The position numbers and the translations under genes were made by a program. A stretch of DNA of 64,000 nt from an uncultured bacterium (GTDB lineage: Bacteria > Babelota > Babeliae > Babelales > Babelaceae): NCBI GenBank assembly GCA_963848965.1, contig CAWKFG010000004.1, positions 256,001-320,000 on the forward strand, written 5' to 3'. Below, piece after piece: positions 1 through 14,393 of this stretch. Numbering within the stretch: the first letter of the stretch is position 1; each line of letters begins with the position of its first letter. The notes beneath the pieces are model-generated. The model did no database searches. It saw nothing but the letters and a program-made list of their open reading frames with translations, and was not told the origin of the DNA.

Positions 1-1746
1 AACATTATACGGAGCAAGTGAAACAGATTCAAACATGTTAAGTGCTTTCAGCCGCTTAATAGTTTGATCAATTTTTTCTTTACTCCAGGGATCCCCTTCT
101 TTGTATTGTAGTTCACGCAAAATAATATCTGACTTTATCTTACCAGTACTTGCAAGCACCGTTTTTCCAAAGCGCACTTTTGCTGCATGATCAATATGCC
201 ATACAAGCATAGTACCATCTTTTTGAGTGACAAATTCAGGATGAACAGCTACATACAAACTACCCCTTTGCTTAAAGTATTTGAGTAACCATTGTCGCTG
301 TTCTTGTATCAAATGTACATCAAATGGCCGTGGCTTTTGTAGACTCGCCCACTCTTTAAAAGGCTCTTCTTTTAGTAGGTGAGGATATCCTGCTATAGTA
401 ATACCAGTAAGCATTCTTCTTTGACCAAGCTCTAGTGTAAGCACAAGTTCGTATTGCATATCTTCTAAAGGAACAAAATCTTGTTTTACTACTTTAAAAT
501 CCCAGAATCCTTGCTTAATATGTTCAGTGCCAAACTTATCAAGTGCGTTCGCAAGAGCTGCTGCATCAAAATAGGGCTGCTTTAAAAAATCTGTAAACGT
601 ACGCTTTATAAGAGTTTGTGTAGCAGGTGAGGTATCTCCTTTAACGCTTACAGAAGAAACGCGCATACGAGGCCCTTCATTAATAACAAAGTAAAATCGC
701 TCTGATTCTTCTTTCCATTCAACTTTTACCTGCCAAAAACCCTGTTTTTTATAAAGAGTACTAATATCTTCAGCAAGTAATGAAGGAGGTATAAGAAGAG
801 CAGAACTTCCTACCACTAAAAGCTCATTAAGAAGATGCTCAGAAGAGTAAAAGTGATTACCAAAAAATACAAAACGTTTTTTTTGGTACAGCGTAATAGT
901 AAATGAAAGAGCTACAGTCTTATCTTTTTCATGAATCTTTTTTGTAAGCTCTATTTTAGGATTAAGATATCCTCTATGCGAAAGGTAGGTTCTTACTTCT
1001 TGTATATGGTGTTCAATAAGCGATCGAGAATAATAATTAGTTCGTAATTTATCTAAAGATGCTCGTACACGCTCTTCTACTTTTTTACATTCTTCATTAC
1101 ACTGAGCTTCATGTACTTTAACAGAGACAGCACTATCATTGATAATAAAACGATCTGTATTCTCTAGATGTAATGTTACGAGTACTCGTTTTGTATCTTT
1201 GTCATAGGTAATATAATCAGTAACTTTTGCATGTAAATAGCCATTTTTTTGAAGTTCTTGTTCAACTTTTACAAGTGAATGCTGATGCTTAGCAAGGTCA
1301 AAAGGCTCGCCCGGCTCCAAGAGGTAATAATGCTCATACCTATCTTTGCCGACGAGCCATCCTTTAAATTTGACCTTAAAAAATGTCCATGCACTTTTAA
1401 GAGCGAAAGTAAGTTCTTTACCTTGAGCACCATCAACAGCTGTAATAACTACTGTATCAAACTTATTCTTTCTTTTTAAATGCCAACAAGCTCGCTTTAT
1501 ATCTTCAGGAGTAATCCACGATTGCTCTTTAAGAGAGACTAAATACCGAAGCTCTTTTTCTGCCATCGGTATATCTGAGGTAAAGATAAGCTTACTCAGA
1601 AAAAATCGTTCTTTAAAACTGGTGTCTACAAGCGAAAACTTCTCATCTGCTGTAGGTAATAAGCTAATATCTATACTGCTTGTAAAAAGCATACAAGAGT
1701 AAAGACTTATGCCTAGTATACAAAGTATTCTATAACGTACTACCAT
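1..1746 (-). CDS. BamA/TamA (Omp85) family outer-membrane assembly protein, N-terminal POTRA region; runs off window
   Basis: Not in ORF track. Manual translation from ATG at 1746 is open to position 1 (MVRYRILCILGISLYS...). POTRA-like motifs LYKKQGFWQVKV, FVINEGPRMRVSSVSVKG, IILRELQYKEGDPWSKEKIDQTIKRLKALNMFESV. Confidence 0.8.
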   Translation of the reverse strand, partial: MVVRYRILCILGISLYSCMLFTSSIDISLLPTADEKFSLVDTSFKERFFLSKLIFTSDIPMAEKELRYLVSLKEQSWITPEDIKRACWHLKRKNKFDTVVITAVDGAQGKELTFALKSAWTFFKVKFKGWLVGKDRYEHYYLLEPGEPFDLAKHQHSLVKVEQELQKNGYLHAKVTDYITYDKDTKRVLVTLHLENTDRFIINDSAVSVKVHEAQCNEECKKVEERVRASLDKLRTNYYSRSLIEHHIQEVRTYLSHRGYLNPKIELTKKIHEKDKTVALSFTITLYQKKRFVFFGNHFYSSEHLLNELLVVGSSALLIPPSLLAEDISTLYKKQGFWQVKVEWKEESERFYFVINEGPRMRVSSVSVKGDTSPATQTLIKRTFTDFLKQPYFDAAALANALDKFGTEHIKQGFWDFKVVKQDFVPLEDMQYELVLTLELGQRRMLTGITIAGYPHLLKEEPFKEWASLQKPRPFDVHLIQEQRQWLLKYFKQRGSLYVAVHPEFVTQKDGTMLVWHIDHAAKVRFGKTVLASTGKIKSDIILRELQYKEGDPWSKEKIDQTIKRLKALNMFESVSLAPYNV

Positions 1747-1814
1747 ACTCGTTCCTCTATTTTTCAGTACTACGCTTCTAGTATACAGCAAATTAAGAAA
1801 TGAAGCTTCTGCCT

Positions 1815-2093
1815 TTATTCAATAACGCGAAATACTCCTCTATAGTCTCGATCTTTTAAAAAAGGCTCTATTTCAATGTCTTGCACATCTGCTTGTGGTG
1901 ACTCTTTGTGTATTATATCTACAAAATCGTCTACATGCTCTTTTTCACCGCAGATAATTATTTTTACTTTACTACCCCCTACTGGCTGAGCAAGACCTTC
2001 AAGTTCAAATTTACGTGCATACTTTTGCACTATATCTTGCAAAAACTCCGTCTTTGGCTCCACTGTTAATGTTATCTTCAGACATTTATTCAT
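1815..2093 (-). CDS. acyP: Acylphosphatase-fold protein (divergent)
   Basis: 92 aa; KYARKFELEGLAQPVGGSKVKIIICGE and C-terminal FRVI pattern; canonical GxVQGVGFR motif is degenerate. Confidence 0.6.
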   Translation of the reverse strand: MNKCLKITLTVEPKTEFLQDIVQKYARKFELEGLAQPVGGSKVKIIICGEKEHVDDFVDIIHKESPQADVQDIEIEPFLKDRDYRGVFRVIE

Positions 2094-2193: not shown

Positions 2194-2226
2194 AAAAAAA
2201 AGCACCGTGGCATAATCCACGGTGCT
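2194..2226 (-). terminator. Rho-independent terminator after ATAD3-like gene
   Basis: AGCACCGTGG-cataat-CCACGGTGCT stem with adjacent A8 (U-tract on minus strand). Confidence 0.85.
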
Positions 2227-2244
2227 TGAACGTATGTTCTGTAT

Positions 2245-3801
2245 TTATGCAGCTGCAGCTGCGTGCGGTTTACCAAATCCTGCAATTCCTGTTTTCTTCT
2301 GTTCTATCTTTGTGTTAGCAACATCTTGAACAATATCTGCAGTTAATGCTCCACTCTCAGTTGCATATGCTCGTGATTGCCACTCAAGAACAAGCTGAGA
2401 AATTTCACGCCCAACAAAGCCTTCAAGCTTTTTATTCAGAGCGTCTACTGCATCTTCATTTAATGCATTTGGTTCAATCACAATAGCTTTTGGTGCTTCT
2501 TTTGAACCAAAGAGACGACCTAAGAATGAAGTTGCTTGTGGCTGCAATTGAGATGGATCTTCTAAGTACTTATGAATATATTGTTTCAATATATGCTTAC
2601 GCTGCTCTGAAGCTGGTGCATCAATTTTTATTTGTTCAGCACAACGGCTTAAGAATGCACCATCAAGATCTTCTGGACGATTGGTCAACGCTATTACCAT
2701 AAAGTCACGAGTCTCTGTTCCAGTGTAGGTTAGAATATGAGTGAGTAGCTTACGAGTATTTTCACTTAAATTCTTATCTCTGTTTGCAAAAAGAATTTCT
2801 GCTTCATCAATAATAATCATAAGTTTCTTTGCAGACTTTTTAGCAAATTCAAAAAGCTCGGTAAGTTGGCTTAAAGCTAAATCAAGGCTCATGGTATCTA
2901 AAGCAGATGCAGCAAAATAAATATAGTCAAGACCACAGTTGTATGCTAATCGTTTTGCTAACATAGTTTTACCAGTTCCTGGAGGACCATAAAAAAGAAT
3001 ATTCTTTAAGTATGCTCCATTTTTTATGGTATTTTTTAACGATTCTGCAAGTTTAGAAACACGCTCTTGTAATTTTGGTTCTAGAATAACATCTTCTATC
3101 TTTCCTTGCGGCGGCTTTATACCATAGATAAAGTTACCCATTCTTTCACGCCATGTAAGCAATGATGTTTCTTGAGCCAAACGAGGTATTCTGTACCAAT
3201 GGCTAATCATTTGAGCAGCAAGAGCAGTACCATGTTTTGCACCAAATACACCGAGTGCTAAACCAGTACCTGCTAATACGAGCAATCGCGCATTCTTAGG
3301 CTCAGTACATGCTTTAATAACGTTATTGACGTTATCCCTCATTGCTTTTGCATTTTCCTTTGCATGAATACTTGCTTTTATAGCAGTTTTTTGCTTTTCT
3401 GTTTCTGCTTTTCGTTCATCTTCTTCCATTCTAAAAACACCTGCAATTCCTTCTTTTGCTACATCAAACAGTGCAGCTCCTGCTTTATCCCAGCGTTCAT
3501 TAGAATTTAAATGTGTTTTCTGATATTCAGCCTTCATCTTCTGAATTTCAATACGTTCTTCAGGAGTTTGAGCATCTCTCAAATCAGCATCAAACTTACG
3601 CATCTGTTCTTCGTGATTGCGCTTTCTTTGCTCAGCTGCATCTCGAATATTTCTGTCCATATCTTTTGCAAATTGAGCAGTTTCGTTAGCCCACCATTCA
3701 TGGGCATTAAAGTTCTTGTGGCCTCTCATACCATAAGCAGGGGCAGAGAGTAAGGGAATACTAAAAAGTAGCAAGTACTTTTTCTTACATAATAGTTTCA
3801 T
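2245..3801 (-). CDS. ATAD3-like AAA+ ATPase with N-terminal signal peptide
   Basis: Signal peptide, coiled coil, TM segment LAGTGLALGVFGAK, PRLAQETS, Walker A GPPGTGKT, Walker B IIIDEAE, sensor-1 TNRP, C-terminal EGFVGREISQL..WQSRAYATESGALT; same layout as eukaryotic ATAD3. Confidence 0.85.
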   Translation of the reverse strand: MKLLCKKKYLLLFSIPLLSAPAYGMRGHKNFNAHEWWANETAQFAKDMDRNIRDAAEQRKRNHEEQMRKFDADLRDAQTPEERIEIQKMKAEYQKTHLNSNERWDKAGAALFDVAKEGIAGVFRMEEDERKAETEKQKTAIKASIHAKENAKAMRDNVNNVIKACTEPKNARLLVLAGTGLALGVFGAKHGTALAAQMISHWYRIPRLAQETSLLTWRERMGNFIYGIKPPQGKIEDVILEPKLQERVSKLAESLKNTIKNGAYLKNILFYGPPGTGKTMLAKRLAYNCGLDYIYFAASALDTMSLDLALSQLTELFEFAKKSAKKLMIIIDEAEILFANRDKNLSENTRKLLTHILTYTGTETRDFMVIALTNRPEDLDGAFLSRCAEQIKIDAPASEQRKHILKQYIHKYLEDPSQLQPQATSFLGRLFGSKEAPKAIVIEPNALNEDAVDALNKKLEGFVGREISQLVLEWQSRAYATESGALTADIVQDVANTKIEQKKTGIAGFGKPHAAAAA

Positions 3802-3819: not shown

Positions 3820-5157
3820 TTATGCCGTTTTTCGTGTTTGAGGTTCTGGCACAGTATTTTCTAGATCCATATAGCTCTTATAGAGATTATATGCCTTCCA
3901 GCCAGCAATACATGCTATTGGAAAAGCGATAAAGAATGAAATTCGCGCATTGGCACTACTTTTTGCAGTCCACCATTGACGTAAAAGCCGAGCTGGCATA
4001 AATGAAATTGCATCATGACCTTTGGCTACATAGTCTTTAATATCTTTTTCTATTGCTTTTATCTCTGCCTCTGGTTTAAAAGACTCTTTTGCTTTCTTAT
4101 AGTCCTCAAGTATCTTTTTAAGTTCTTCCATATGATTTACTATATACTCTGCCCATAGTGCATTACTGCCATTATCAAAGAGTTTTACAGCCCATCCAAG
4201 ACCAATGAGCTCAATAATAGCACGGCCAGTAGGTGAATAAATCCATTCAGGTATGCCCCACTTAAACCGTTTATTAAACCATCCCATACCTGACACAAAG
4301 CTGTCTGAGCGATCACGTACAAAAGCAAGAAAAGGGTTTGAGCCCCATTGGAGCCACTTTAAAATCGATACAATAGAAATAGGCATAGAGTCAGATTCTA
4401 CTACTTCACCATATTCATTTTTTTCATAGACCTTACCATATCTGTTATCCCAGATAGATATATCTTCTAAAAACTTACTTTTAAGCAGCGTGGTAGCTTT
4501 CTCTACACCAAAGCGAACCATTAAAGGAACTATTGTCTCTTGTTTAAAGGGATTGTATTTGATTAAGCTATGATACTTTTGAATATAGTTTCGTAAAGGA
4601 TCTGCTAAGCTACTTTTCTTTCTTCTATGATTTACGAGCATCTTACCTAACATACTCTTTTCATCATACTCTTTTTCAAAAGCATCTTGTGCTTTTTGTA
4701 CTTTTTCAAGCTCATCAAGTATCTGCTGATAGTGCTCTTTAACGTGCCCTGTTATTTTAGCAATTCTGTTATTATGAATTCGTTTATAAAGAAAGATATC
4801 GCTTACAATATTTGCAGCAAAGAAGCTTCCTTCAACTGCATCCTTATTATAGATCCCAAACCGGGGTATAAATTGTGAAGAGCTTGCAGCTGTTGCCCAT
4901 AAAAGCGTATTCTGCCATCTAATTTTATTGTCTCGAGCTTCTTCTTTCTTTTTTTCCTGCTTTTCCTGACGTGCTTCTTCTTTGCGTATAATCTCTTCAG
5001 GATTTGCTTCTTCCAAAATAGTTGGTATTTCTCGTATAGTAGCATCTATCTCAGCTTGCTCTTCTGGCGAAAGCTTTCCTTGTGTATTTTCCATTGCCTG
5101 TACAGAAGACAGGATACACAATAGACTACTGACTATACCTATTTTTGCTCTCTTCAT
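3820..5157 (-). CDS. Hypothetical exported/membrane protein, likely co-transcribed with the ATAD3-like gene
   Basis: Probable start MKRAKIG at 5157; signal peptide ending VQA-ME; charged coiled coil; C-terminal hydrophobic helix; 18-nt gap to next gene. Confidence 0.7.
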   Translation of the reverse strand: MKRAKIGIVSSLLCILSSVQAMENTQGKLSPEEQAEIDATIREIPTILEEANPEEIIRKEEARQEKQEKKKEEARDNKIRWQNTLLWATAASSSQFIPRFGIYNKDAVEGSFFAANIVSDIFLYKRIHNNRIAKITGHVKEHYQQILDELEKVQKAQDAFEKEYDEKSMLGKMLVNHRRKKSSLADPLRNYIQKYHSLIKYNPFKQETIVPLMVRFGVEKATTLLKSKFLEDISIWDNRYGKVYEKNEYGEVVESDSMPISIVSILKWLQWGSNPFLAFVRDRSDSFVSGMGWFNKRFKWGIPEWIYSPTGRAIIELIGLGWAVKLFDNGSNALWAEYIVNHMEELKKILEDYKKAKESFKPEAEIKAIEKDIKDYVAKGHDAISFMPARLLRQWWTAKSSANARISFFIAFPIACIAGWKAYNLYKSYMDLENTVPEPQTRKTA

Positions 5158-5277
5158 AAAATATAGTTCCTCCATTCTAAAAAAACCCCCATAATTTTAA
5201 TGCTTTTTCTATGGTACCGGTTCTCCATTTTTTTATCAAATGGTTTGGCAAAAGGCACATTTTACTGAGAGATCTTG

Positions 5278-5844
5278 CTAACTTTGCAAAGTGATGCCCT
5301 TTATAAGGTATTCAATGAGCTTTGCTCTGCGTAGATGATCACGAGTAGACTCTTTAGAAAAACCACTACCAAATATAGCCATTCCCATCGCTGACGATAT
5401 AACAAATGCGCTCGCAGCTAGACTCGCCATCAGTTTTTCACGTTCAAGTTCTCTTTCCTCCTGCTCAAGGTGCGCTCTTACACTACGAGATGCTATTGTT
5501 TGAGCAATTTTGACAATCTCTATCTTTTCTGGAAGAGTCCTCGTACGTCTACCTTCAAAGTAAGCTCCCATAGCAACTCCTGTTATAGCAAGAAGAGCTC
5601 CGCTTACAAGTTTAACTATATCCTTTGGATGAAACATTCGTGCTTGTTTTTCACCTAATTTCACCGCCTTACGAGCATAGTCCAGGAGTTCTTCTTTTTC
5701 AGATGCAGTAAACTCACCTTTAATAAACCGTTCAACTTCTTCAACAGAATTATTTTTAATTGCATCAATAAAATTTTTCTGGATAGAAAAAAGTGAAACT
5801 GTTGTAAACAACATAGAAAGATATATACCTATAGTATATTTCAT
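5278..5844 (-). CDS. Small exported two-TM protein, paralog 1 of 4
   Basis: Probable start MKYTIG; DAIKNNSVEEVERF...KAKLIE-type family motifs shared with the next three ORFs. Confidence 0.75.
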   Translation of the reverse strand: MKYTIGIYLSMLFTTVSLFSIQKNFIDAIKNNSVEEVERFIKGEFTASEKEELLDYARKAVKLGEKQARMFHPKDIVKLVSGALLAITGVAMGAYFEGRRTRTLPEKIEIVKIAQTIASRSVRAHLEQEERELEREKLMASLAASAFVISSAMGMAIFGSGFSKESTRDHLRRAKLIEYLIKGITLQS

Positions 5845-5938
5845 CGTATCCTTTATAGTAATTACCCCTATTCCGTTCAAACATTAGAGAGGTAGTGCAA
5901 GAATTACATAGTTCTCTACCTAATAGAATGCTCGTATC

Positions 5939-6436
5939 TTATTTTTCTGGAGCTTCTTGAACGCAACTTTCAATTTTGCATGCTTTTTTTAAAGCTCGTT
6001 GAGCGCTATACATAGTCCATCCACGATGTGTTTGTTGACATCCTACATACGATAGACCACCTCCTCCTGCTGCTAATACGAGCCCAAGGAGAGTAAGCGA
6101 AAGTTCGTCACCCAATTCAAGTAAAAACATTACAGATCCTACAACGGTCATTGGAAGTCCTACGTTTAGTAATAAAAATAGACCACCTACAAACCGTACC
6201 ATATCAGCTCCACTGCTAAAGAGGCTCTTGGTCTTATCTTTATACATTTTTACAGTATCGCTAATTTCTTTTAAAAGCAGCTTCTTTTGCTCTTTAGTAA
6301 GCGGACTTTGCTGCTTTACTAATTTTCTTACTTCTTTTACATCATTATTATCTATCGCACTAACAAGTGAATCTACGCAAAACGTAGATGCTGTAAAGCA
6401 AACAAACAAAGCAGCAGGTATAGAACGTATTTTCAT
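5939..6436 (-). CDS. Small exported two-TM protein, paralog 2 of 4
   Basis: Signal peptide; SAIDNNDVKEVRKL..PLTKEQKKLLL; hydrophobic hairpin; ALKKACKIE. Confidence 0.8.
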   Translation of the reverse strand: MKIRSIPAALFVCFTASTFCVDSLVSAIDNNDVKEVRKLVKQQSPLTKEQKKLLLKEISDTVKMYKDKTKSLFSSGADMVRFVGGLFLLLNVGLPMTVVGSVMFLLELGDELSLTLLGLVLAAGGGGLSYVGCQQTHRGWTMYSAQRALKKACKIESCVQEAPEK

Positions 6437-6461
6437 AAATTCCCTACTAACATTATCACAA

Positions 6462-6496
6462 AAAAGAAAGCCATAAGAATCTTATGGCTTTCTTTT
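6462..6496. terminator. Intrinsic terminator hairpin within paralog array
   Basis: AAAAGAAAGCCATAAG-aat-CTTATGGCTTTCTTTT perfect inverted repeat. Confidence 0.8.
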
Positions 6497-6516
6497 GTCT
6501 TTTAACATACTACTTA

Positions 6517-7074
6517 TTAGAGTACCGGCATTTCTTCGATATGTTTTTCTATTTTTCGTGCTTTTTCTAAAGCGCTATGAGCACTGTTCATTGACCAGCC
6601 TTTAGAGAAGAGCCACCATGAAAGACCTGCTATAACTGCGTTTGCTCCAGACCACAGAAAGAGCGTTCTTTTTACTAATTTTATGTCTTCTGGGTTATCC
6701 AAGCCTTTCTTATGAAGCTCTCTGCGGAACTCTGGGTTATTTTTATAGAGCGAGTCTACAGCTAATCCAATGCCAAAATTAGCAAGTGCCCCTAACGTTG
6801 CAGAAACTCCAACGATACCGCCAACTCCTACTTTTAGCAAGTCGTAGCCGCTTCTAAAGAGACTTTCTGTTTTTTCCTTGCACTCTCTAGCAATTTCATG
6901 AGCTGTAGCAAGATATTTAGCCTTCTGCTCAAGGGTCAAAGGTTCATGATGCTTTGCTAAATGTTTTACTTCATCAACATTTTGTGCTTCAATAGCATCC
7001 ATAAGCTTTGACGTACCATTCAGCGCTATAGTACTTGTAAGCACTAAAGCAGAAACTAATAAACTGTATTTCAT
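6517..7074 (-). CDS. Small exported two-TM protein, paralog 3 of 4
   Basis: DAIEAQNVDEVKHL..PLTLEQKAKYL..ESLFRSGYD; ALEKARKIE. Confidence 0.8.
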   Translation of the reverse strand: MKYSLLVSALVLTSTIALNGTSKLMDAIEAQNVDEVKHLAKHHEPLTLEQKAKYLATAHEIARECKEKTESLFRSGYDLLKVGVGGIVGVSATLGALANFGIGLAVDSLYKNNPEFRRELHKKGLDNPEDIKLVKRTLFLWSGANAVIAGLSWWLFSKGWSMNSAHSALEKARKIEKHIEEMPVL

Positions 7075-7117
7075 AAAATACTCCTTAAAGATTAAACTAA
7101 TTACAAACTTTTGTTAC

Positions 7118-7621
7118 CTATTCTTTAAATACTGCAGCATTCACCAACTCTTCTATTTCATAAGCTTTATGTAAGTTACCAAGAGCGCTTGAGCGTAATG
7201 TTCCAAGATATACTTGCCATGCTCCCCCTACTACCATACCAGCTCCTAAACAAGCTTTTGCAGCAGACCATAAGGTAGCAGTTGTTTTTCCTTGTATTCC
7301 TTGCCACAATGTTCCGAATACTCCTCGTAAGCCCCACCCTAAGCCTAGGACTGCAGCTGTTCCTCCAAATCCAATTCTCATAAGATCAGTTTCACTTCTA
7401 AAAATAGACTCTGATTTGCTTTTATATGTTGAGATCAACTCCTGAACTTCATGTAAAAGCTGCTTCTTTTGCTCTTTAGTCAAAGCTGTTTCATTTTTTA
7501 AGAGCTCCTCTACCTGTTTTACATTGTTAGATTTTATAGCACTAAGCAGCTGATCTATACTAAAAGTTAAAGAAGTGTTTACAAGCATGAAAGCAGTTAG
7601 GAAAAAACGGATCTTGTTCAT
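7118..7621 (-). CDS. Small exported two-TM protein, paralog 4 of 4
   Basis: SAIKSNNVKQVEEL..LTKEQKKQLL..ESIFRSETD; NLHKAYEIE. Confidence 0.8.
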   Translation of the reverse strand: MNKIRFFLTAFMLVNTSLTFSIDQLLSAIKSNNVKQVEELLKNETALTKEQKKQLLHEVQELISTYKSKSESIFRSETDLMRIGFGGTAAVLGLGWGLRGVFGTLWQGIQGKTTATLWSAAKACLGAGMVVGGAWQVYLGTLRSSALGNLHKAYEIEELVNAAVFKE

Positions 7622-10970: not shown

Positions 10971-12407
10971 ATGGATACAACTTCTATTCGTGTGCGCTTT
11001 GCGCCATCGCCCACCGGTTTTATGCATTTAGGAAACGTACGAGCGGCACTCATAAATTATTTATTTGCACATCAAAAGAGCGGGACATTTATTTTACGCA
11101 TCGAAGATACAGACGCCCAAAGAATGGTCGATCCTATGGGTGCTCGTATTATGGAAGATATTTCTTGGCTGCATCTAACGTATGACGAAGGTCCTCAAGT
11201 AGGAGGTCCTTATGAACCCTATTATCAATCACAACGTACACAGCTCTATACTCGCTATCTCAACGCAGCCATAGAAAAAAATCTTGTTTATCGTTGCTTT
11301 TGTACTATAGAAGAGCTTGAAAAGAAGAGGCAACGCCAGCTTGCACTAAAACAGCCACCTCGGTATGATCGCTGTTGTCTCCGCTTCAGCCCTGAAGAAA
11401 TTTCACAAAAACTTTCTTCTCATATCCCTTTTATCTGGCGCTTCAAGCTTGATCATGCTAAACAAGTTTCGTTTTACGAACTTGCTCGCAAAACTATGCA
11501 TTTTGAGCTTAAACATTTTTCTGATGTACCAGTAACGCGAGAAGACGGTAGTTTCACCTTTCTCTTTGCCAACTTTATAGACGATGTACAAATGAAAGTA
11601 TCGCACGTCTTTCGGGGTGAAGACCATCTGAGCAACACTGCAGTACAAGTAGCTATGTACGAAGCATTCAATGCTCAAGTACCAACTTTCTGGCATCTGC
11701 CAATTATTACTAACACCGAAGGCAAAAAACTCTCAAAACGTGACTTTGGCTTTTCACTAACAGATCTTAAAAATGAAGGTTATTTACCCCAAGCTATCTG
11801 CAATTACATTATCCTCATGGGTGGCACTTTCCAAAAAGAAATTATGACACTCAGTGAACTTACTCAAGCTCTCAACTTTGACTCTATAACTTCAACGAGC
11901 CAAATAAAATACGATGTAGAGAAGCTCAGATGGGTTAATCACCAATGGATTATGCGATATGATACCAACGAACTCGCCAAACTCTGCAGACCGTACCTTG
12001 ACTCTGCATACTCCACCGTTAACACTCTCTCTGATACTCAATTAGCTACGCTCATCTCCTACATCCAGCCAGAAATTATTACCCTCAAAGAGAGCATCGC
12101 TGCCCTCTCATTCTATTTCACTGTACCTATACCAGAGCCCACTCTCTTTGCAGAGTACCATCTTGCATTGTACCAGCCCCTTTTGCATACACTTATACCA
12201 GAAATTCGTCCTCTGCTTGCACAGCCTGAACAAGCTGTTAAACACTTACAAGCTGCATGTAAAGCCCAAGGAGCTTCTATACGCGAGGTCTTCACTCTTA
12301 TACGCATAGCGCTCACTGGAAAGCCTCAAGGTCTCGGCATCAAAGAGCTATTTGCTCTGCTTGGCCCTGACGAGTCCTACAGGCGCCTAACTACGCTGCT
12401 TAGCTAA
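10971..12407 (+). CDS. gltX: Glutamate--tRNA ligase
   Basis: RVRFAPSPTGFMHLGN, LRIEDTD, RGEDHL, KKLSKR; probable start ATG at 10971. Confidence 0.95.
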   Translation: MDTTSIRVRFAPSPTGFMHLGNVRAALINYLFAHQKSGTFILRIEDTDAQRMVDPMGARIMEDISWLHLTYDEGPQVGGPYEPYYQSQRTQLYTRYLNAAIEKNLVYRCFCTIEELEKKRQRQLALKQPPRYDRCCLRFSPEEISQKLSSHIPFIWRFKLDHAKQVSFYELARKTMHFELKHFSDVPVTREDGSFTFLFANFIDDVQMKVSHVFRGEDHLSNTAVQVAMYEAFNAQVPTFWHLPIITNTEGKKLSKRDFGFSLTDLKNEGYLPQAICNYIILMGGTFQKEIMTLSELTQALNFDSITSTSQIKYDVEKLRWVNHQWIMRYDTNELAKLCRPYLDSAYSTVNTLSDTQLATLISYIQPEIITLKESIAALSFYFTVPIPEPTLFAEYHLALYQPLLHTLIPEIRPLLAQPEQAVKHLQAACKAQGASIREVFTLIRIALTGKPQGLGIKELFALLGPDESYRRLTTLLS

Positions 12408-12411
12408 TTGC

Positions 12412-12817
12412 TAGGGGCTTTGCCCCTATAACCCCAGCAGGGTCACAACCTTGCACCCTCTGGTATCTGCTCAGAGCTAACGCTCCTCGCCCGTCTTTTT
12501 AAAGCAAAAAATCATGCTGATTTTTTGCAATAGCAGTCCCTACGGGAATCTCCGTTCCAGGCGGAACGTGCCTGTTCCGATGACATTGAGTACGAATAAC
12601 CCTTTGGTAGTCTCATATCAACGATGATTCTGTAAACATGGTGTCGTCAGCGAGGGTGTGTTCCACCCTCGATGGAGACTCGCGTAGCGGCGTGCAACTG
12701 CAAAAAATCGGCACGATTTTTTGCTCTAAAAGAACCAGCGCAAGAGCGTAGCTCTGAAGCTAGAAAGCGGGTTGCAAGGGCGGGCCCTTGCCGGGGGTGT
12801 TGGGGGCAGAGCCCTTA
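12412..12817. repeat. 406-nt imperfect inverted doublet of a multi-hairpin GC-rich cassette
   Basis: Left arm ~12412-12587 aligns with the reverse complement of right arm ~12640-12817; each arm holds six small hairpins in the same order. Confidence 0.9.
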
Positions 12818-12846
12818 ACCTCACAAGCATTGCTTCACGGGAAGAA

Positions 12847-13101
12847 TTAAACAGTCTCAGCAGGATCAAGGAGGCGATTGGGTAATTTAACAAAGTCTGT
12901 TATGATGCCTTCATGCAGGTAGTACTGCATAAGAGAAAGAAAGATGTGTTCTTGGGCTGGAGGTACAAAAAACTCGAATGTGCGTGTTTGCTTGTTGAGT
13001 GTCCGGTCGAATGCGACGTGCTCAAAGCTGCGGAGCGTAGCTACTAGAAACCAGGTATCTTTTTCTTTTACATGAGCTTGATAATAAACACAATACTGCA
13101 T
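12847..13101 (-). CDS. Small conserved hypothetical protein (DUF4911-like)
   Basis: 84 aa; FLVATLRSFEHVAFDRTLNK..FEFFVP pattern. Confidence 0.6.
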   Translation of the reverse strand: MQYCVYYQAHVKEKDTWFLVATLRSFEHVAFDRTLNKQTRTFEFFVPPAQEHIFLSLMQYYLHEGIITDFVKLPNRLLDPAETV

Positions 13102-13187
13102 AAAATGGATCTTAATTTTTTAAAAATTTAGGGTAATATAAGAGCATACTTTAGTATAAGGGAGTTTTTTTTAAAGAGGAAGTGAGC

Positions 13188-14393
13188 ATGACAAAAGATA
13201 ATTCACACAACAAGATTGGTTTATTAACTGCAACGATTATATGCATGAACTCAATGATAGGAGCAGGGATTTTTACTACGCCTGCACAGCTAGCACTTAC
13301 TGCAGGTCCTGCTGGCATTATAACATATCTGTTTGTCATTGCTGCTGTGCTTTTTATGGCACTATCATTAGCACGAGTATCAGCGTTATATCCGCAGGAA
13401 GGGTCTTTTTATGTGTATGCTAAGGCCTGGGGTGGCCACACTATGGGCGTTCTGGCTGCAGGTTCTTATGTTGTTGGAGTTTTAATTGCATTGAGTTTAA
13501 TTACGCAGTTAGCCGCTGGTTATTTGCATGAACTTGTACCTGCATTGAGTGTAAATATGTGGGGCATAGTACTTGTAAGTTCAATTGTAGGGCTCAATGT
13601 TATTGGCGTACGAATGGTCCAAGTTGGACAATTTATTTTGCTCGGTTGTACGTTATTTGCACTTTTAGGAACTACGGTGCTGGGATTAACACACATAAAT
13701 TGGAGTAATTTAACGCCTTTTATGCCGAGCGGCTGGAGTTCTCTGGCGGGTGCTGTTCCTACAGCAATTTTTGCCTTTTTTGGTTTCGAGTCTGCTGCTT
13801 CTCTTTTTAGTGTTGTAAAGAATCCTGAGAGGAATGTTCCTCGAGCATTAACGTATTCTATTTTGGCGGTAGGTGCCATCTATTTAGCGTTTATTTCCTC
13901 AATTATTTTATCAATTCCGAAAGAAGCATTTACGAATGCCCGAATGCCTATCTCAGAAGCGATTATAAAGCTGTTTCCTCAGTATGCTTGGCTTGCAAAA
14001 GCAATTGGTATAGCAATTCTTACAGGGTTCTTGGGAGTACTCCAATCTATGATGTACTCGGTAAGTGCTCTTGCATTCTCGTTCTTTAAATTATTGCATA
14101 ATAAGTATGCTCGAGCAATTACACGATCTGAATATGGTTTTCAGGCAATTATAGTAGGTGTAGGAGCTTTAGTACTACTGAACTTCTTTACTATTAAAAG
14201 CTTAGGTCTCTTCTTTAATCTTACTGCAGTAGGGGTAGTATTTGCGTATGCCTCTTCTATTGTGACTCTATGGCTCAAAGGTCATGATAAGACGATAGGA
14301 CAGAAAATAACAACGTTCTTAGGTCTTGCAACTGCAGCAGGGATATTTATAATTGCCTTTAATGGGTTACTAGGAGAGCTTTTGAAATCTTAA
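13188..14393 (+). CDS. APC-family amino acid permease
   Basis: MNSMIGAGIF, GSFYVYA, FAFFGFES, KNPERNVPRA; about 12 hydrophobic segments. Confidence 0.9.
   Translation: MTKDNSHNKIGLLTATIICMNSMIGAGIFTTPAQLALTAGPAGIITYLFVIAAVLFMALSLARVSALYPQEGSFYVYAKAWGGHTMGVLAAGSYVVGVLIALSLITQLAAGYLHELVPALSVNMWGIVLVSSIVGLNVIGVRMVQVGQFILLGCTLFALLGTTVLGLTHINWSNLTPFMPSGWSSLAGAVPTAIFAFFGFESAASLFSVVKNPERNVPRALTYSILAVGAIYLAFISSIILSIPKEAFTNARMPISEAIIKLFPQYAWLAKAIGIAILTGFLGVLQSMMYSVSALAFSFFKLLHNKYARAITRSEYGFQAIIVGVGALVLLNFFTIKSLGLFFNLTAVGVVFAYASSIVTLWLKGHDKTIGQKITTFLGLATAAGIFIIAFNGLLGELLKS

Follow-up and report, generated by a model that had tools for sequence, protein, structure and literature searches.

A 64,000-nucleotide stretch of DNA from an uncultured bacterium of the Babelaceae (assembly GCA_963848965.1, contig CAWKFG010000004.1, positions 256,001 to 320,000; hereafter the window) carries a gene whose product, P0001, is a genuine ATAD3 relative of bacterial origin within the classical AAA+ ATPases, placed on the ATAD3 branch, an assignment that we regard as virtually certain. 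By synteny, the gene is the second of a conserved two-gene module, in which it is preceded by an orphan partner gene, p451, that is new here. P0001 comprises 518 aa and is encoded by an intact open reading frame (ORF) at 2245..3801 on the minus strand, stop codon counted in. An earlier reading of the same DNA by a model that worked from the letters alone (the sequence-only reading) had given exactly this position and described the ORF correctly. Coordinates without a locus or contig name refer to the window, and all window genes and elements discussed below are located on the minus strand. The genome amounts to 1.73 Mb in 5 contigs, and P0001 is encoded on a bacterial contig of 872,875 bp.

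Homology of P0001 to eukaryotic ATAD3

By BLASTP, P0001 aligned with a Chlorella vulgaris protein named ATAD3, the domains of which were verified (P0104), at 32% identity over residues 124-501 (E 9e-60), and with a Phytophthora protein (P0112) at 29% identity over residues 56-503 (E 3e-52). Comparison by hhalign of a profile built from 30 bacterial members (A1) with one built from 26 eukaryotic members (A2) resulted in a probability of 100% and an E value of 4.1e-81 over 371 columns, corresponding to residues 145-517 of P0001. Besides the AAA core, the aligned stretch takes in the hydrophobic helix, the P.L..ETS motif and the linker before it and the C-terminal extension after it, and reaches about 120 residues before and about 100 residues after the Pfam AAA domain. 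The matches of P0001 to p97/FtsH-type and other generic AAA proteins were confined to residues ~231-417. In a search of 5.8 billion proteins, about 95 bacterial relatives ranked first, the named ones belonging to Candidatus Babela massiliensis and a Candidatus Dependentiae bacterium, and the best non-bacterial matches were all eukaryotic proteins with PF12037 and PF00004 from green algae and Phytophthora (E 1e-56 to 1e-45). Several of the bacterial relatives already bear the label 'ATAD3A/B' from the Joint Genome Institute (JGI) pipeline. An exhaustive search yielded 386 representatives at E<=1e-30.

The sequence-only reading had named three ATAD3-specific segments on the basis of human ATAD3A strings. 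Database proteins were compared here instead, and all three segments aligned with Chlorella P0104 in the BLASTP comparison. The corresponding stretches of P0001 and P0104 are LALGVFGAKHGT and LALGVYSAREGT, with PRLAQETS opposite PKLVRETS; VILEPKLQERV...KNILFYGPPGTGKT and IVLEPTLQDHV...RHMLFYGPPGTGKT; and EGFVGREISQL..WQSRAYATESGALT and EGFSGRELAKF..VQAMAYGSHNAELS. The C-terminal extension (EGFVGREISQL…WQSRAYAT) was aligned to ATAD3 EGFSGRE..Q..AY by both BLASTP and hhalign. The spacing of the elements is similar as well: the distance from the helix to Walker A is 97-101 residues in most bacterial members and 102-106 in eukaryotes, and that from P.L..ETS to Walker A is 65-66 residues in bacteria and 67-71 in eukaryotes.

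The ATAD3_N domain (PF12037), to which the sequence-only reading had looked for confirmation, did not provide it, and this speaks against the assignment: neither the whole of P0001 nor residues 1-250 matched PF12037 even at E<=10. A six-frame search of the whole genome for this domain gave no match, the control of that search giving none either. Among the relatives scanned, PF12037 matched 0 of 6 bacterial vs 6 of 6 eukaryotic proteins. Within the PF12037 region, hhalign aligned the last ~50 positions alone, which hold the helix and the ETS motif. The N-terminal helical region lies outside the hhalign alignment and is weakly covered by BLASTP (from residue 56) and HMMER (from residue 47); coiled-coil composition could yield this extension, which may or may not reflect homology. 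NCBIfam returned generic AAA families only, far under their cut-offs, and searches of a PDB copy by sequence and by fold returned only generic AAA ATPases and no ATAD3 structure, even with the eukaryotic profile. With Pfam likewise finding generic AAA families only, P0001 might be taken for an ordinary bacterial AAA ATPase whose likeness to ATAD3 beyond the AAA core arose by chance or convergence. This is contradicted by the hhalign result, which includes the flanking segments, by the end of the generic AAA matches at ~231-417, by the BLASTP alignment to a named ATAD3 and by the phylogeny described below, and we consider it next to impossible.

Domain organisation of P0001

The N-terminus of P0001 is signal-peptide-like (residues 1-24, MKLLCKKKYLLLFSIPLLSAPAYG, 3730..3801), with a top 10-residue Kyte-Doolittle (KD) hydrophobicity of 2.31, and is followed by Met25. 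A Shine-Dalgarno-like AAGGA is located 6 nt 5' of the first ATG (3801) and none 5' of Met25, so the signal-like segment is probably translated. Next is a long charged helical region (residues 33-165, 3307..3705), in which the AlphaFold2 (AF2) model places helices at residues 33-75 and 80-165 with low to moderate confidence (predicted local distance difference test, pLDDT, of 45-91) and in which a coiled coil is only putative. The hydrophobic helix (residues 171-188, ARLLVLAGTGLALGVFGA, 3238..3291; 17-residue KD of 1.73) is, by hydrophobicity and alignment, homologous to the inner-membrane transmembrane (TM) segment of ATAD3, and the family motif P-x-L-x-x-E-T-S (residues 206-213, PRLAQETS, 3163..3186) is the equivalent of the ATAD3 consensus P.LVRETS. 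In the 30 bacterial sequences, P206 and T212 of this motif are invariant.

The AAA domain (residues 268-394, 2620..3000; PF00004, E 1.4e-25) was modelled with a pLDDT of >90. It contains Walker A (GPPGTGKT, residues 272-279, 2965-2988), Walker B (IIIDEAE, residues 329-335, 2797-2817) and the segments LTNRP (residues 372-376) and FLSR (residues 383-386). G272, K278, T279, D332, E333, N374 and R386 are invariant in the same 30 sequences and equivalent to invariant residues of ATAD3. Conservation of Walker A and B, the sensor-1 Asn and the Arg finger throughout the family indicates that the proteins are probably active ATPases. At the pore-loop position, p97 D2 has MWFG, which we take to be its pore loop, P0001 has MSLD and the ATAD3 consensus is APLG; the aromatic residue is missing in the bacterial and the ATAD3 branch, which argues against classical substrate threading. 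The lid and the ATAD3-type C-terminal extension (residues 449-507, 2281..2457), assigned by alignment to ATAD3, include EGFVGREISQL (460-470), of which G464 and R465 are invariant in the bacterial set.

P0001 ends in an Ala-rich tail (…HAAAAA, 2248..2262). A C-terminal Ala-Ala occurs in 28/142 bacterial family rows vs 0/37 eukaryotic rows and 19/1358 ORFs of the genome, 13 of these 19 being signal-like. Three of the 7 genome ORFs ending in A[AP]A or PAA encode signal-bearing AAA proteins, and the second ATAD3-like paralogue of the genome (locus L002) and a further AAA protein (L003) also have Ala-rich ends, the forms among these genes and that of P0001 being …AAAAA and …AAPAA. The tmRNA tag of the genome, ANTAQSAVAFA, is akin to these tails in kind and not identical to them. 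The Ala-rich C-terminus may serve as a degron or direct sorting of the protein.

Phylogeny and origin of ATAD3

An overview tree of 184 rows was calculated with FastTree, and then a tree of 79 rows x 370 columns with IQ-TREE under LG+C20+F+G4 by posterior mean site frequency (PMSF). Five AAA modules from the same genome, including FtsH, served as outgroups, and ATAD3 proteins were the only eukaryotic AAA proteins included. The ATAD3-like family, P0001 among it, was separated from FtsH and the four other modules with a support of 100/99. Taken together with the BLASTP and hhalign results, this bears out the view of the sequence-only reading that P0001 is a true ATAD3 homologue rather than a generic bacterial AAA protein. 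Within the family, the eukaryotes were monophyletic (22 rows, 100/99). The bacterial rows fell into clade A (33 rows, 100/99), which includes P0001 and the Babela-labelled proteins, clade B (13 rows, 96/68), which includes the second paralogue of the genome, and a four-row group placed as sister to the eukaryotes (94/94); the deepest node was not resolved (44/0). The bacterial lineages are thus several and deep, with ~30% identity to each other and to ATAD3.

The named eukaryotic rows comprise a millipede, Solanum, Chlorella, Trebouxia and Phytophthora. Some rows had first been labelled 'eukaryotic' from their position in the tree, and this label was rechecked with a profile of PF12037-verified rows, by which 17 such rows scored 400-886 bits vs 165-315 bits for 29 bacterial rows (6 N rows, 13 B rows and a 10-row sample of clade A). 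Given this gap, the label holds apart from the tree. In a search with the eukaryotic profile A2, used only to name plant ATAD3, plants and green algae filled the matches listed (at least 120). The bacterial group next to the eukaryotes belongs to the same phylum, Dependentiae: its member P0182 shares 91% identity with a gene from one genome of the phylum (G109). In that genome, a tandem array of five paralogous genes (337-388 aa, L026 3694-8935) is located 3' of the eukaryote-proximal ATPase gene, each product having a signal-like N-terminus ending in 'SLNAM' and the common C-terminus '…QKNGGDHGMHV'.

Could the gene have been acquired recently from a eukaryotic host, as a host-derived mimic, or be a eukaryotic contamination of the assembly? 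ATAD3 is otherwise described in eukaryotes only (PMC3790746, available part), and uptake of eukaryotic genes has been reported for Dependentiae (PMC4378268, available part). Against this, the gene is situated within the large bacterial contig amid BamA-like and other bacterial genes, its GC content resembles that of its surroundings, no bacterial row falls inside the eukaryotic clade, and the bacterial lineages, found in 13/21 of the family-level groups within the phylum, match in depth the split from the eukaryotes. Eukaryotic monophyly and deep bacterial lineages together rule out a recent host-derived copy, and we consider recent acquisition or contamination most improbable. The sequence-only reading had proposed a mimic of host ATAD3 or a protein that co-assembles with it. 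The former finds no support in that form, as the bacterial proteins are not nested within the sampled eukaryotes and form several deep lineages, and the latter is unlikely at ~30% identity. Its further suggestion, that the protein is a clue to the origin of ATAD3, was well founded.

On the aligned sequences, the eukaryotic and bacterial branches appear to have parted anciently. In the outgroup-rooted maximum-likelihood (ML) tree, the eukaryotic clade was placed among the bacterial lineages. This tree shape, with the small Dependentiae group as sister to the eukaryotes, is consistent with a bacterial origin of ATAD3, in which an ancient intracellular bacterium akin to the Dependentiae would have passed the gene to its host at a time predating the common ancestor of animals, plants and stramenopiles. 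We put this forward tentatively and would not presently expect it to be true. ATAD3 would then be neither a eukaryotic invention nor heritage of the alphaproteobacterial ancestor of mitochondria, and the donated gene may have encoded an envelope or effector ATPase of the parasite, later domesticated to work in the inner membrane of mitochondria. The alternative of reciprocal monophyly was not rejected by the approximately unbiased (AU) test: forcing all 52 bacterial rows together cost only 4.98 log-likelihood units (p 0.40). As bacterial monophyly is compatible with the data, no direction of transfer is claimed.

Distribution within the Dependentiae and a second paralogue

Occurrence of the family was counted within Dependentiae genomes, and confinement to the phylum is not claimed. 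With P0001 as query (E<=1e-25), matches were obtained in 98/261 genomes of the phylum, in 71 of the 189 high-quality genomes and in 60/145 genera; these counts are lower bounds, because five candidates were scored per genome. Family-level groups with a match numbered 13 of 21, the matches covering 34/35 genomes in f17 and 11/12 in f18; in g19, they covered 10/10. A search of a contig collection with profile A1 returned, among the matches listed, ordinary AAA/FtsH-type genes in 80 of 80 cases, aligned over residues ~231-417 only. The genome itself encodes a second paralogue of 642 aa with the same layout as P0001 (L002 472-2463, G000:C5:63853-65781). This protein has a far longer, Pro/Ala/Gly-rich N-terminal region and occupies a long branch of clade B (length 2.06).

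A conserved partner gene upstream of the ATPase gene

The partner gene p451 (3820..5175) encodes 451 aa from the first ATG (445 aa in its database form, with the start at 5157) and ends 18 nt upstream of the ATPase gene. We examined 20 loci from 20 genomes, picked by hand to contain the best-scoring family members and a spread of others. A p451 homologue was located directly upstream of the ATPase gene in 10 of these 20 loci by tblastn and in a further 5 by hidden Markov model (HMM) search, giving 15/20; one of the five loci found by HMM (L023) has a clade-B ATPase. In three loci (L010, L017 and L019), the p451-ATPase pair is duplicated as a unit. Matches to p451 were also obtained on contigs equal in size to those bearing the ATPases P0001, P0002, P0003 and P0178.

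A terminator-like hairpin with an 11-bp stem (7 G·C) and a T-run is located at 2200..2227, 18 nt after the ATPase stop codon. Terminator-like sites in the region number 2 vs a mean of 2.3 in shuffled sequence, so that only its strength and position favour this hairpin. The 18-nt gap between the genes and the hairpin after the ATPase gene make p451 and the ATPase gene look like one transcription unit. Upstream of p451, a promoter-like site occurs at 5211..5239 with 9/12 consensus matches, the count of such sites being below the shuffle mean. From the conserved synteny, we infer that p451 and the ATPase very probably work together.

The p451 protein has a signal-like N-terminus, a helical body and a C-terminal hydrophobic helix, and is predicted to be mostly extracytoplasmic; its AF2 model is all-helical and confident (pLDDT 83.6). 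It remained an orphan in every comparison made. In Pfam, 0/17 members scored above noise, the PDB sequence search gave nothing under E 0.13, and the protein atlas gave no usable match. By fold, the best Foldseek hit had an E value of 0.25 and the best VIA-align hit a Z score of 7.2 on a 46-residue hairpin. The large protein search, to which word-index limits apply, returned 4 matches, all unnamed or 'hypothetical'. The idea that p451 is a split-off ATAD3_N was rejected, as hhalign against eukaryotic ATAD3 gave a probability of 0.3%.

Predicted topology and localisation

With a Sec-type signal ahead of a conserved hydrophobic helix, P0001 would be predicted to be a bitopic protein of the inner membrane, laid out like mitochondrial ATAD3. 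In mitochondria, ATAD3 has its coiled coil towards the outer membrane, its TM segment in the inner membrane and its ATPase in the matrix (PMC13249166, available part). This layout, the signal-like N-terminus with its Shine-Dalgarno-like site, the conserved helix and the recurring BamA context described below favour an envelope topology. According to the scheme that we propose, the Sec signal would take the helical N-terminal part through the inner membrane of the bacterium until the conserved hydrophobic helix halts transfer. The protein would thereby form a hexameric ATPase with a periplasmic coiled coil and a cytoplasmic AAA ring, and the membrane helix would relay ATP hydrolysis to the part in the periplasm and to the partner p451. 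The outcome would be organisation or remodelling of the cell envelope, not threading and unfolding of substrates. Among the localisations considered, an inner-membrane ATPase with a periplasmic coiled coil and p451 is the most likely, and we give the statement as a whole, topology included, an about even chance of being correct.

Several observations weigh against this topology. The N-terminal flank of the helix was richer in Lys and Arg (K+R) in 85 of 142 bacterial rows and the C-terminal flank in 19, with 38 ties, and in eukaryotic rows the C-terminal flank was the richer in 31/36; the bacterial helix does not follow the positive-inside rule, and its charge bias is opposite to that of a C-in anchor. 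With a mean KD of 1.53 in bacteria vs 1.74 in eukaryotes, the bacterial helix might not stop transfer. By the crude rule applied, a signal-like N-terminus occurs in 584/1358 ORFs of the genome (43%) and in 111/142 bacterial family rows. The genome also contains AAA proteins with a signal-like N-terminus and no further hydrophobic helix at L003 (G000:C1:93202-95436), L004 (C4:139998-143510) and L005 (C5:25702-28938), which indicates that the organism may export ATPases. ATP/ADP translocases (PMC4378268 and PMC6561590, available parts) suggest that the periplasm may hold ATP, weakening the need for a cytoplasmic ATPase. The patchy (98/261 genomes), multi-copy distribution of the family also fits host-interaction genes. 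With regard to the partner, p451 was not detected by tblastn or HMM in 5/20 loci, which have instead a tightly linked same-strand upstream ORF of 330-505 aa with no relation to p451 detectable; no p451 was found near the second paralogue at L002, nor, by HMM, in the genome besides the window copy.

The AAA proteins at L003, L004 and L005 comprise one of 744 aa that ends in KAAPAA and two near-identical ones of 1170 and 1078 aa with the AAA and lid domains mid-protein. Signal-like N-termini of this genome show a further peculiarity. An [A/S/G]-Met junction follows the hydrophobic segment in 214/584 signal-like ORFs vs 16/584 in a control window, with Glu as the next residue in 105, and it also occurs in 63/111 signal-like bacterial rows of the ATAD3 family, e.g. 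at window positions 3727-3801. The junction might mark a cleavage site specific to the lineage; alternatively, its Met might be a second start codon from which an isoform without the signal is made.

The sequence-only reading had described P0001 as 'secreted-looking' and an exported effector. A signal-like N-terminus is indeed present; as a sign of secretion it discriminates little, as 43% of the ORFs of the genome look alike. As an effector, P0001, perhaps together with p451, would leave the cell in vesicles or by way of Sec and a type II secretin. Its hydrophobic helix would then insert it in a membrane of the host, with the mitochondrion as a possible target, where it would act as an ATAD3-like ATPase, the element of mimicry being dropped. 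The signal-like N-terminus is in line with this, as are a weak helix without positive-inside bias, as expected if it is not to lodge in the bacterial inner membrane, the patchy, multi-copy distribution and the signal-bearing AAA proteins without a TM segment. The genome also has three secretin-domain genes (ORFs of 1153, 818 and 796 aa), clustered within 8 kb outside the window (G000:C4:767163-774663), and a type II secretion system is reported as core in TM6 (PMC4776705, available part). In Babela, a signal-bearing AAA-Ulp1 family was judged likely secreted (PMC4378268, available part), and C. destructans remodels the host mitochondrion (PMC6561590). The link of Chromulinavorax to the mitochondrion, on which the sequence-only reading had drawn, does not carry over readily: the present organism is not established as Chromulinavorax, its named relatives being Candidatus Babela massiliensis and Dependentiae. 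The family is also found in Babela-labelled relatives, and in the Babela main text 'mitochondri' occurs once, in a transporter list (PMC4378268). Moreover, a Sec signal with a conserved hydrophobic helix (KD 1.73) normally denotes a membrane anchor, the conserved neighbourhood of envelope genes speaks for the bacterial envelope, and with no recent eukaryotic ancestry and ~30% identity co-assembly into host hexamers is unlikely. The evidence does not decide on the reading as a 'secreted effector', to which we assign a rather low probability; export to the periplasm or to the host is kept as a live alternative.

It is still less probable, in our estimate, that the whole protein crosses the inner membrane and that its AAA ring operates with p451 in the periplasm or at the outer membrane of the bacterium itself, on host ATP entering via porins. 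The charge bias around the helix, opposite to that of a C-in anchor, would suit such a location, and so would the BamA neighbourhood and the predicted extracytoplasmic placement of most of p451. ATP import at the inner membrane (PMC4378268, PMC6561590) implies that ATP reaches the periplasm, and periplasmic ATP would thus be expected. On the other hand, Sec translocation of an ATPase with folded domains would be costly, and the conservation of the helix is unexplained unless it anchors the protein. Furthermore, we know of no precedent for a periplasmic AAA+ ATPase. We therefore retain the inner-membrane ATPase with p451 as the preferred reading.

Comparison with known systems

In common with eukaryotic ATAD3, the bacterial proteins have a homologous sequence that starts about 25 residues ahead of the membrane helix and runs on to the C-terminus, similar spacing of helix, P.L..ETS and Walker A, equivalent invariant Walker A, Walker B, Asn and Arg residues, the C-terminal EGF.GRE extension, a pore-loop position without an aromatic residue and a long helical region before the helix. 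They differ from it in having no match to PF12037, an N-terminal helical region that aligns weakly and inconsistently, a Sec-type signal-like sequence in place of the ATAD3 N-terminus and a reversed charge bias around the helix. Many bacterial members end in Ala-Ala, and the bacterial gene has the orphan neighbour p451 (15/20 loci), for which no eukaryotic counterpart was detectable.

FtsH (TIGR01241) is likewise a classical-clade AAA protein with N-terminal membrane anchoring and a periplasmic region, and is the structural neighbour of the AAA module of P0001 (Foldseek E ~5e-15). However, the AAA core alone aligns, with 35 bits to the FtsH of the same genome, which is encoded by a separate gene (L007) and falls outside the family in the tree; P0001 has no M41 domain (no PF01434) and scored 65 bits with TIGR01241 vs a cut-off of 600. 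The signal-bearing AAA proteins of Dependentiae, i.e. AAA-Ulp1 of Babela massiliensis and those at L003, L004 and L005, share with P0001 the phylum and atypical signal-like N-termini, but they represent another AAA lineage (outgroups) and lack the ATAD3-type helix, motif and C-terminal extension as well as a p451 partner. Among solved classical AAA ATPases, Msp1/ATAD1 and p97/Cdc48 come closest to the AAA and lid part in structure and sequence; their similarity is limited to the AAA module, at ~57 bits per domain, and in contrast to P0001 they have canonical pore loops.

Other genes and features of the region

Downstream of the ATPase gene and outside the module is an acylphosphatase gene (1815..2093; PF00708, E 1.7e-7), followed by a BamA-like gene with POTRA repeats (1..1791; PF07244, E 1.1e-27) that runs off the window. 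Among the 20 loci, an acylphosphatase gene is located downstream of the ATPase gene in 6 and a BamA gene in 5. Beyond p451, positions 5278-7621 hold four consecutive small paralogous genes encoding 200, 165, 185 and 167 aa. Their products have signal-like N-termini, a common 'LLSAI..N.V.EV..L' and Gly-rich hydrophobic segments, and none gave a Pfam match above noise. Relatives of three of the four genes occur upstream of the module in L013 and L014. At 12001-14000, the GC content shows a local peak of 0.443 vs ~0.36-0.38 elsewhere in the window.

Previous reports

Animals, plants and protists, but not yeast, are listed as having ATAD3 (PMC3790746, available part), and the available part of a paper on ATAD3 (PMC13249166) contains 'bacteria' 0 times. 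The main text on C. destructans has 0 mentions of AAA or ATPase and describes a mitofilin-like coding sequence (CDS) and signal peptides on 44% of CDS (PMC6561590); the available part gives a genome of 1.2 Mb. As far as its available text goes, the Babela paper (PMC4378268) treats a different family, the signal-bearing AAA-Ulp1 proteins, which are suggested to be secreted. A 2026 paper on eukaryogenesis mentions neither ATAD3 nor Dependentiae in its main text. Literature searches found no paper joining ATAD3 with Dependentiae, Babela, Chromulinavorax or Vermiphilus, although supplements, which were not covered, may list the family. Co-mentions of ATAD3 and 'TM6' belong, judged by title, to unrelated papers, and 'bacterial ATAD3' and 'prokaryotic ATAD3' were not found.

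Implications

ATAD3, whose mechanism is not understood, is essential in animals and Plasmodium, and mutations in it occur in human neurological disease. It is generally treated as exclusively eukaryotic and mitochondrial, and we find a true relative carried by a protist-parasite bacterium of the obligate intracellular phylum Dependentiae. The large and diverse bacterial branch provides a comparative handle on which residues and segments of ATAD3 matter, and the small bacterial proteins, with a defined genetic partner, are usable for biochemistry and electron cryomicroscopy (cryo-EM). The origin of ATAD3 is now testable, as a parasite-derived contribution to mitochondria or as an ancient transfer from eukaryote to parasite. 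For the biology of the Dependentiae, a conserved two-gene module is defined that would belong either to the cell envelope or to the host-interaction arsenal of these bacteria.

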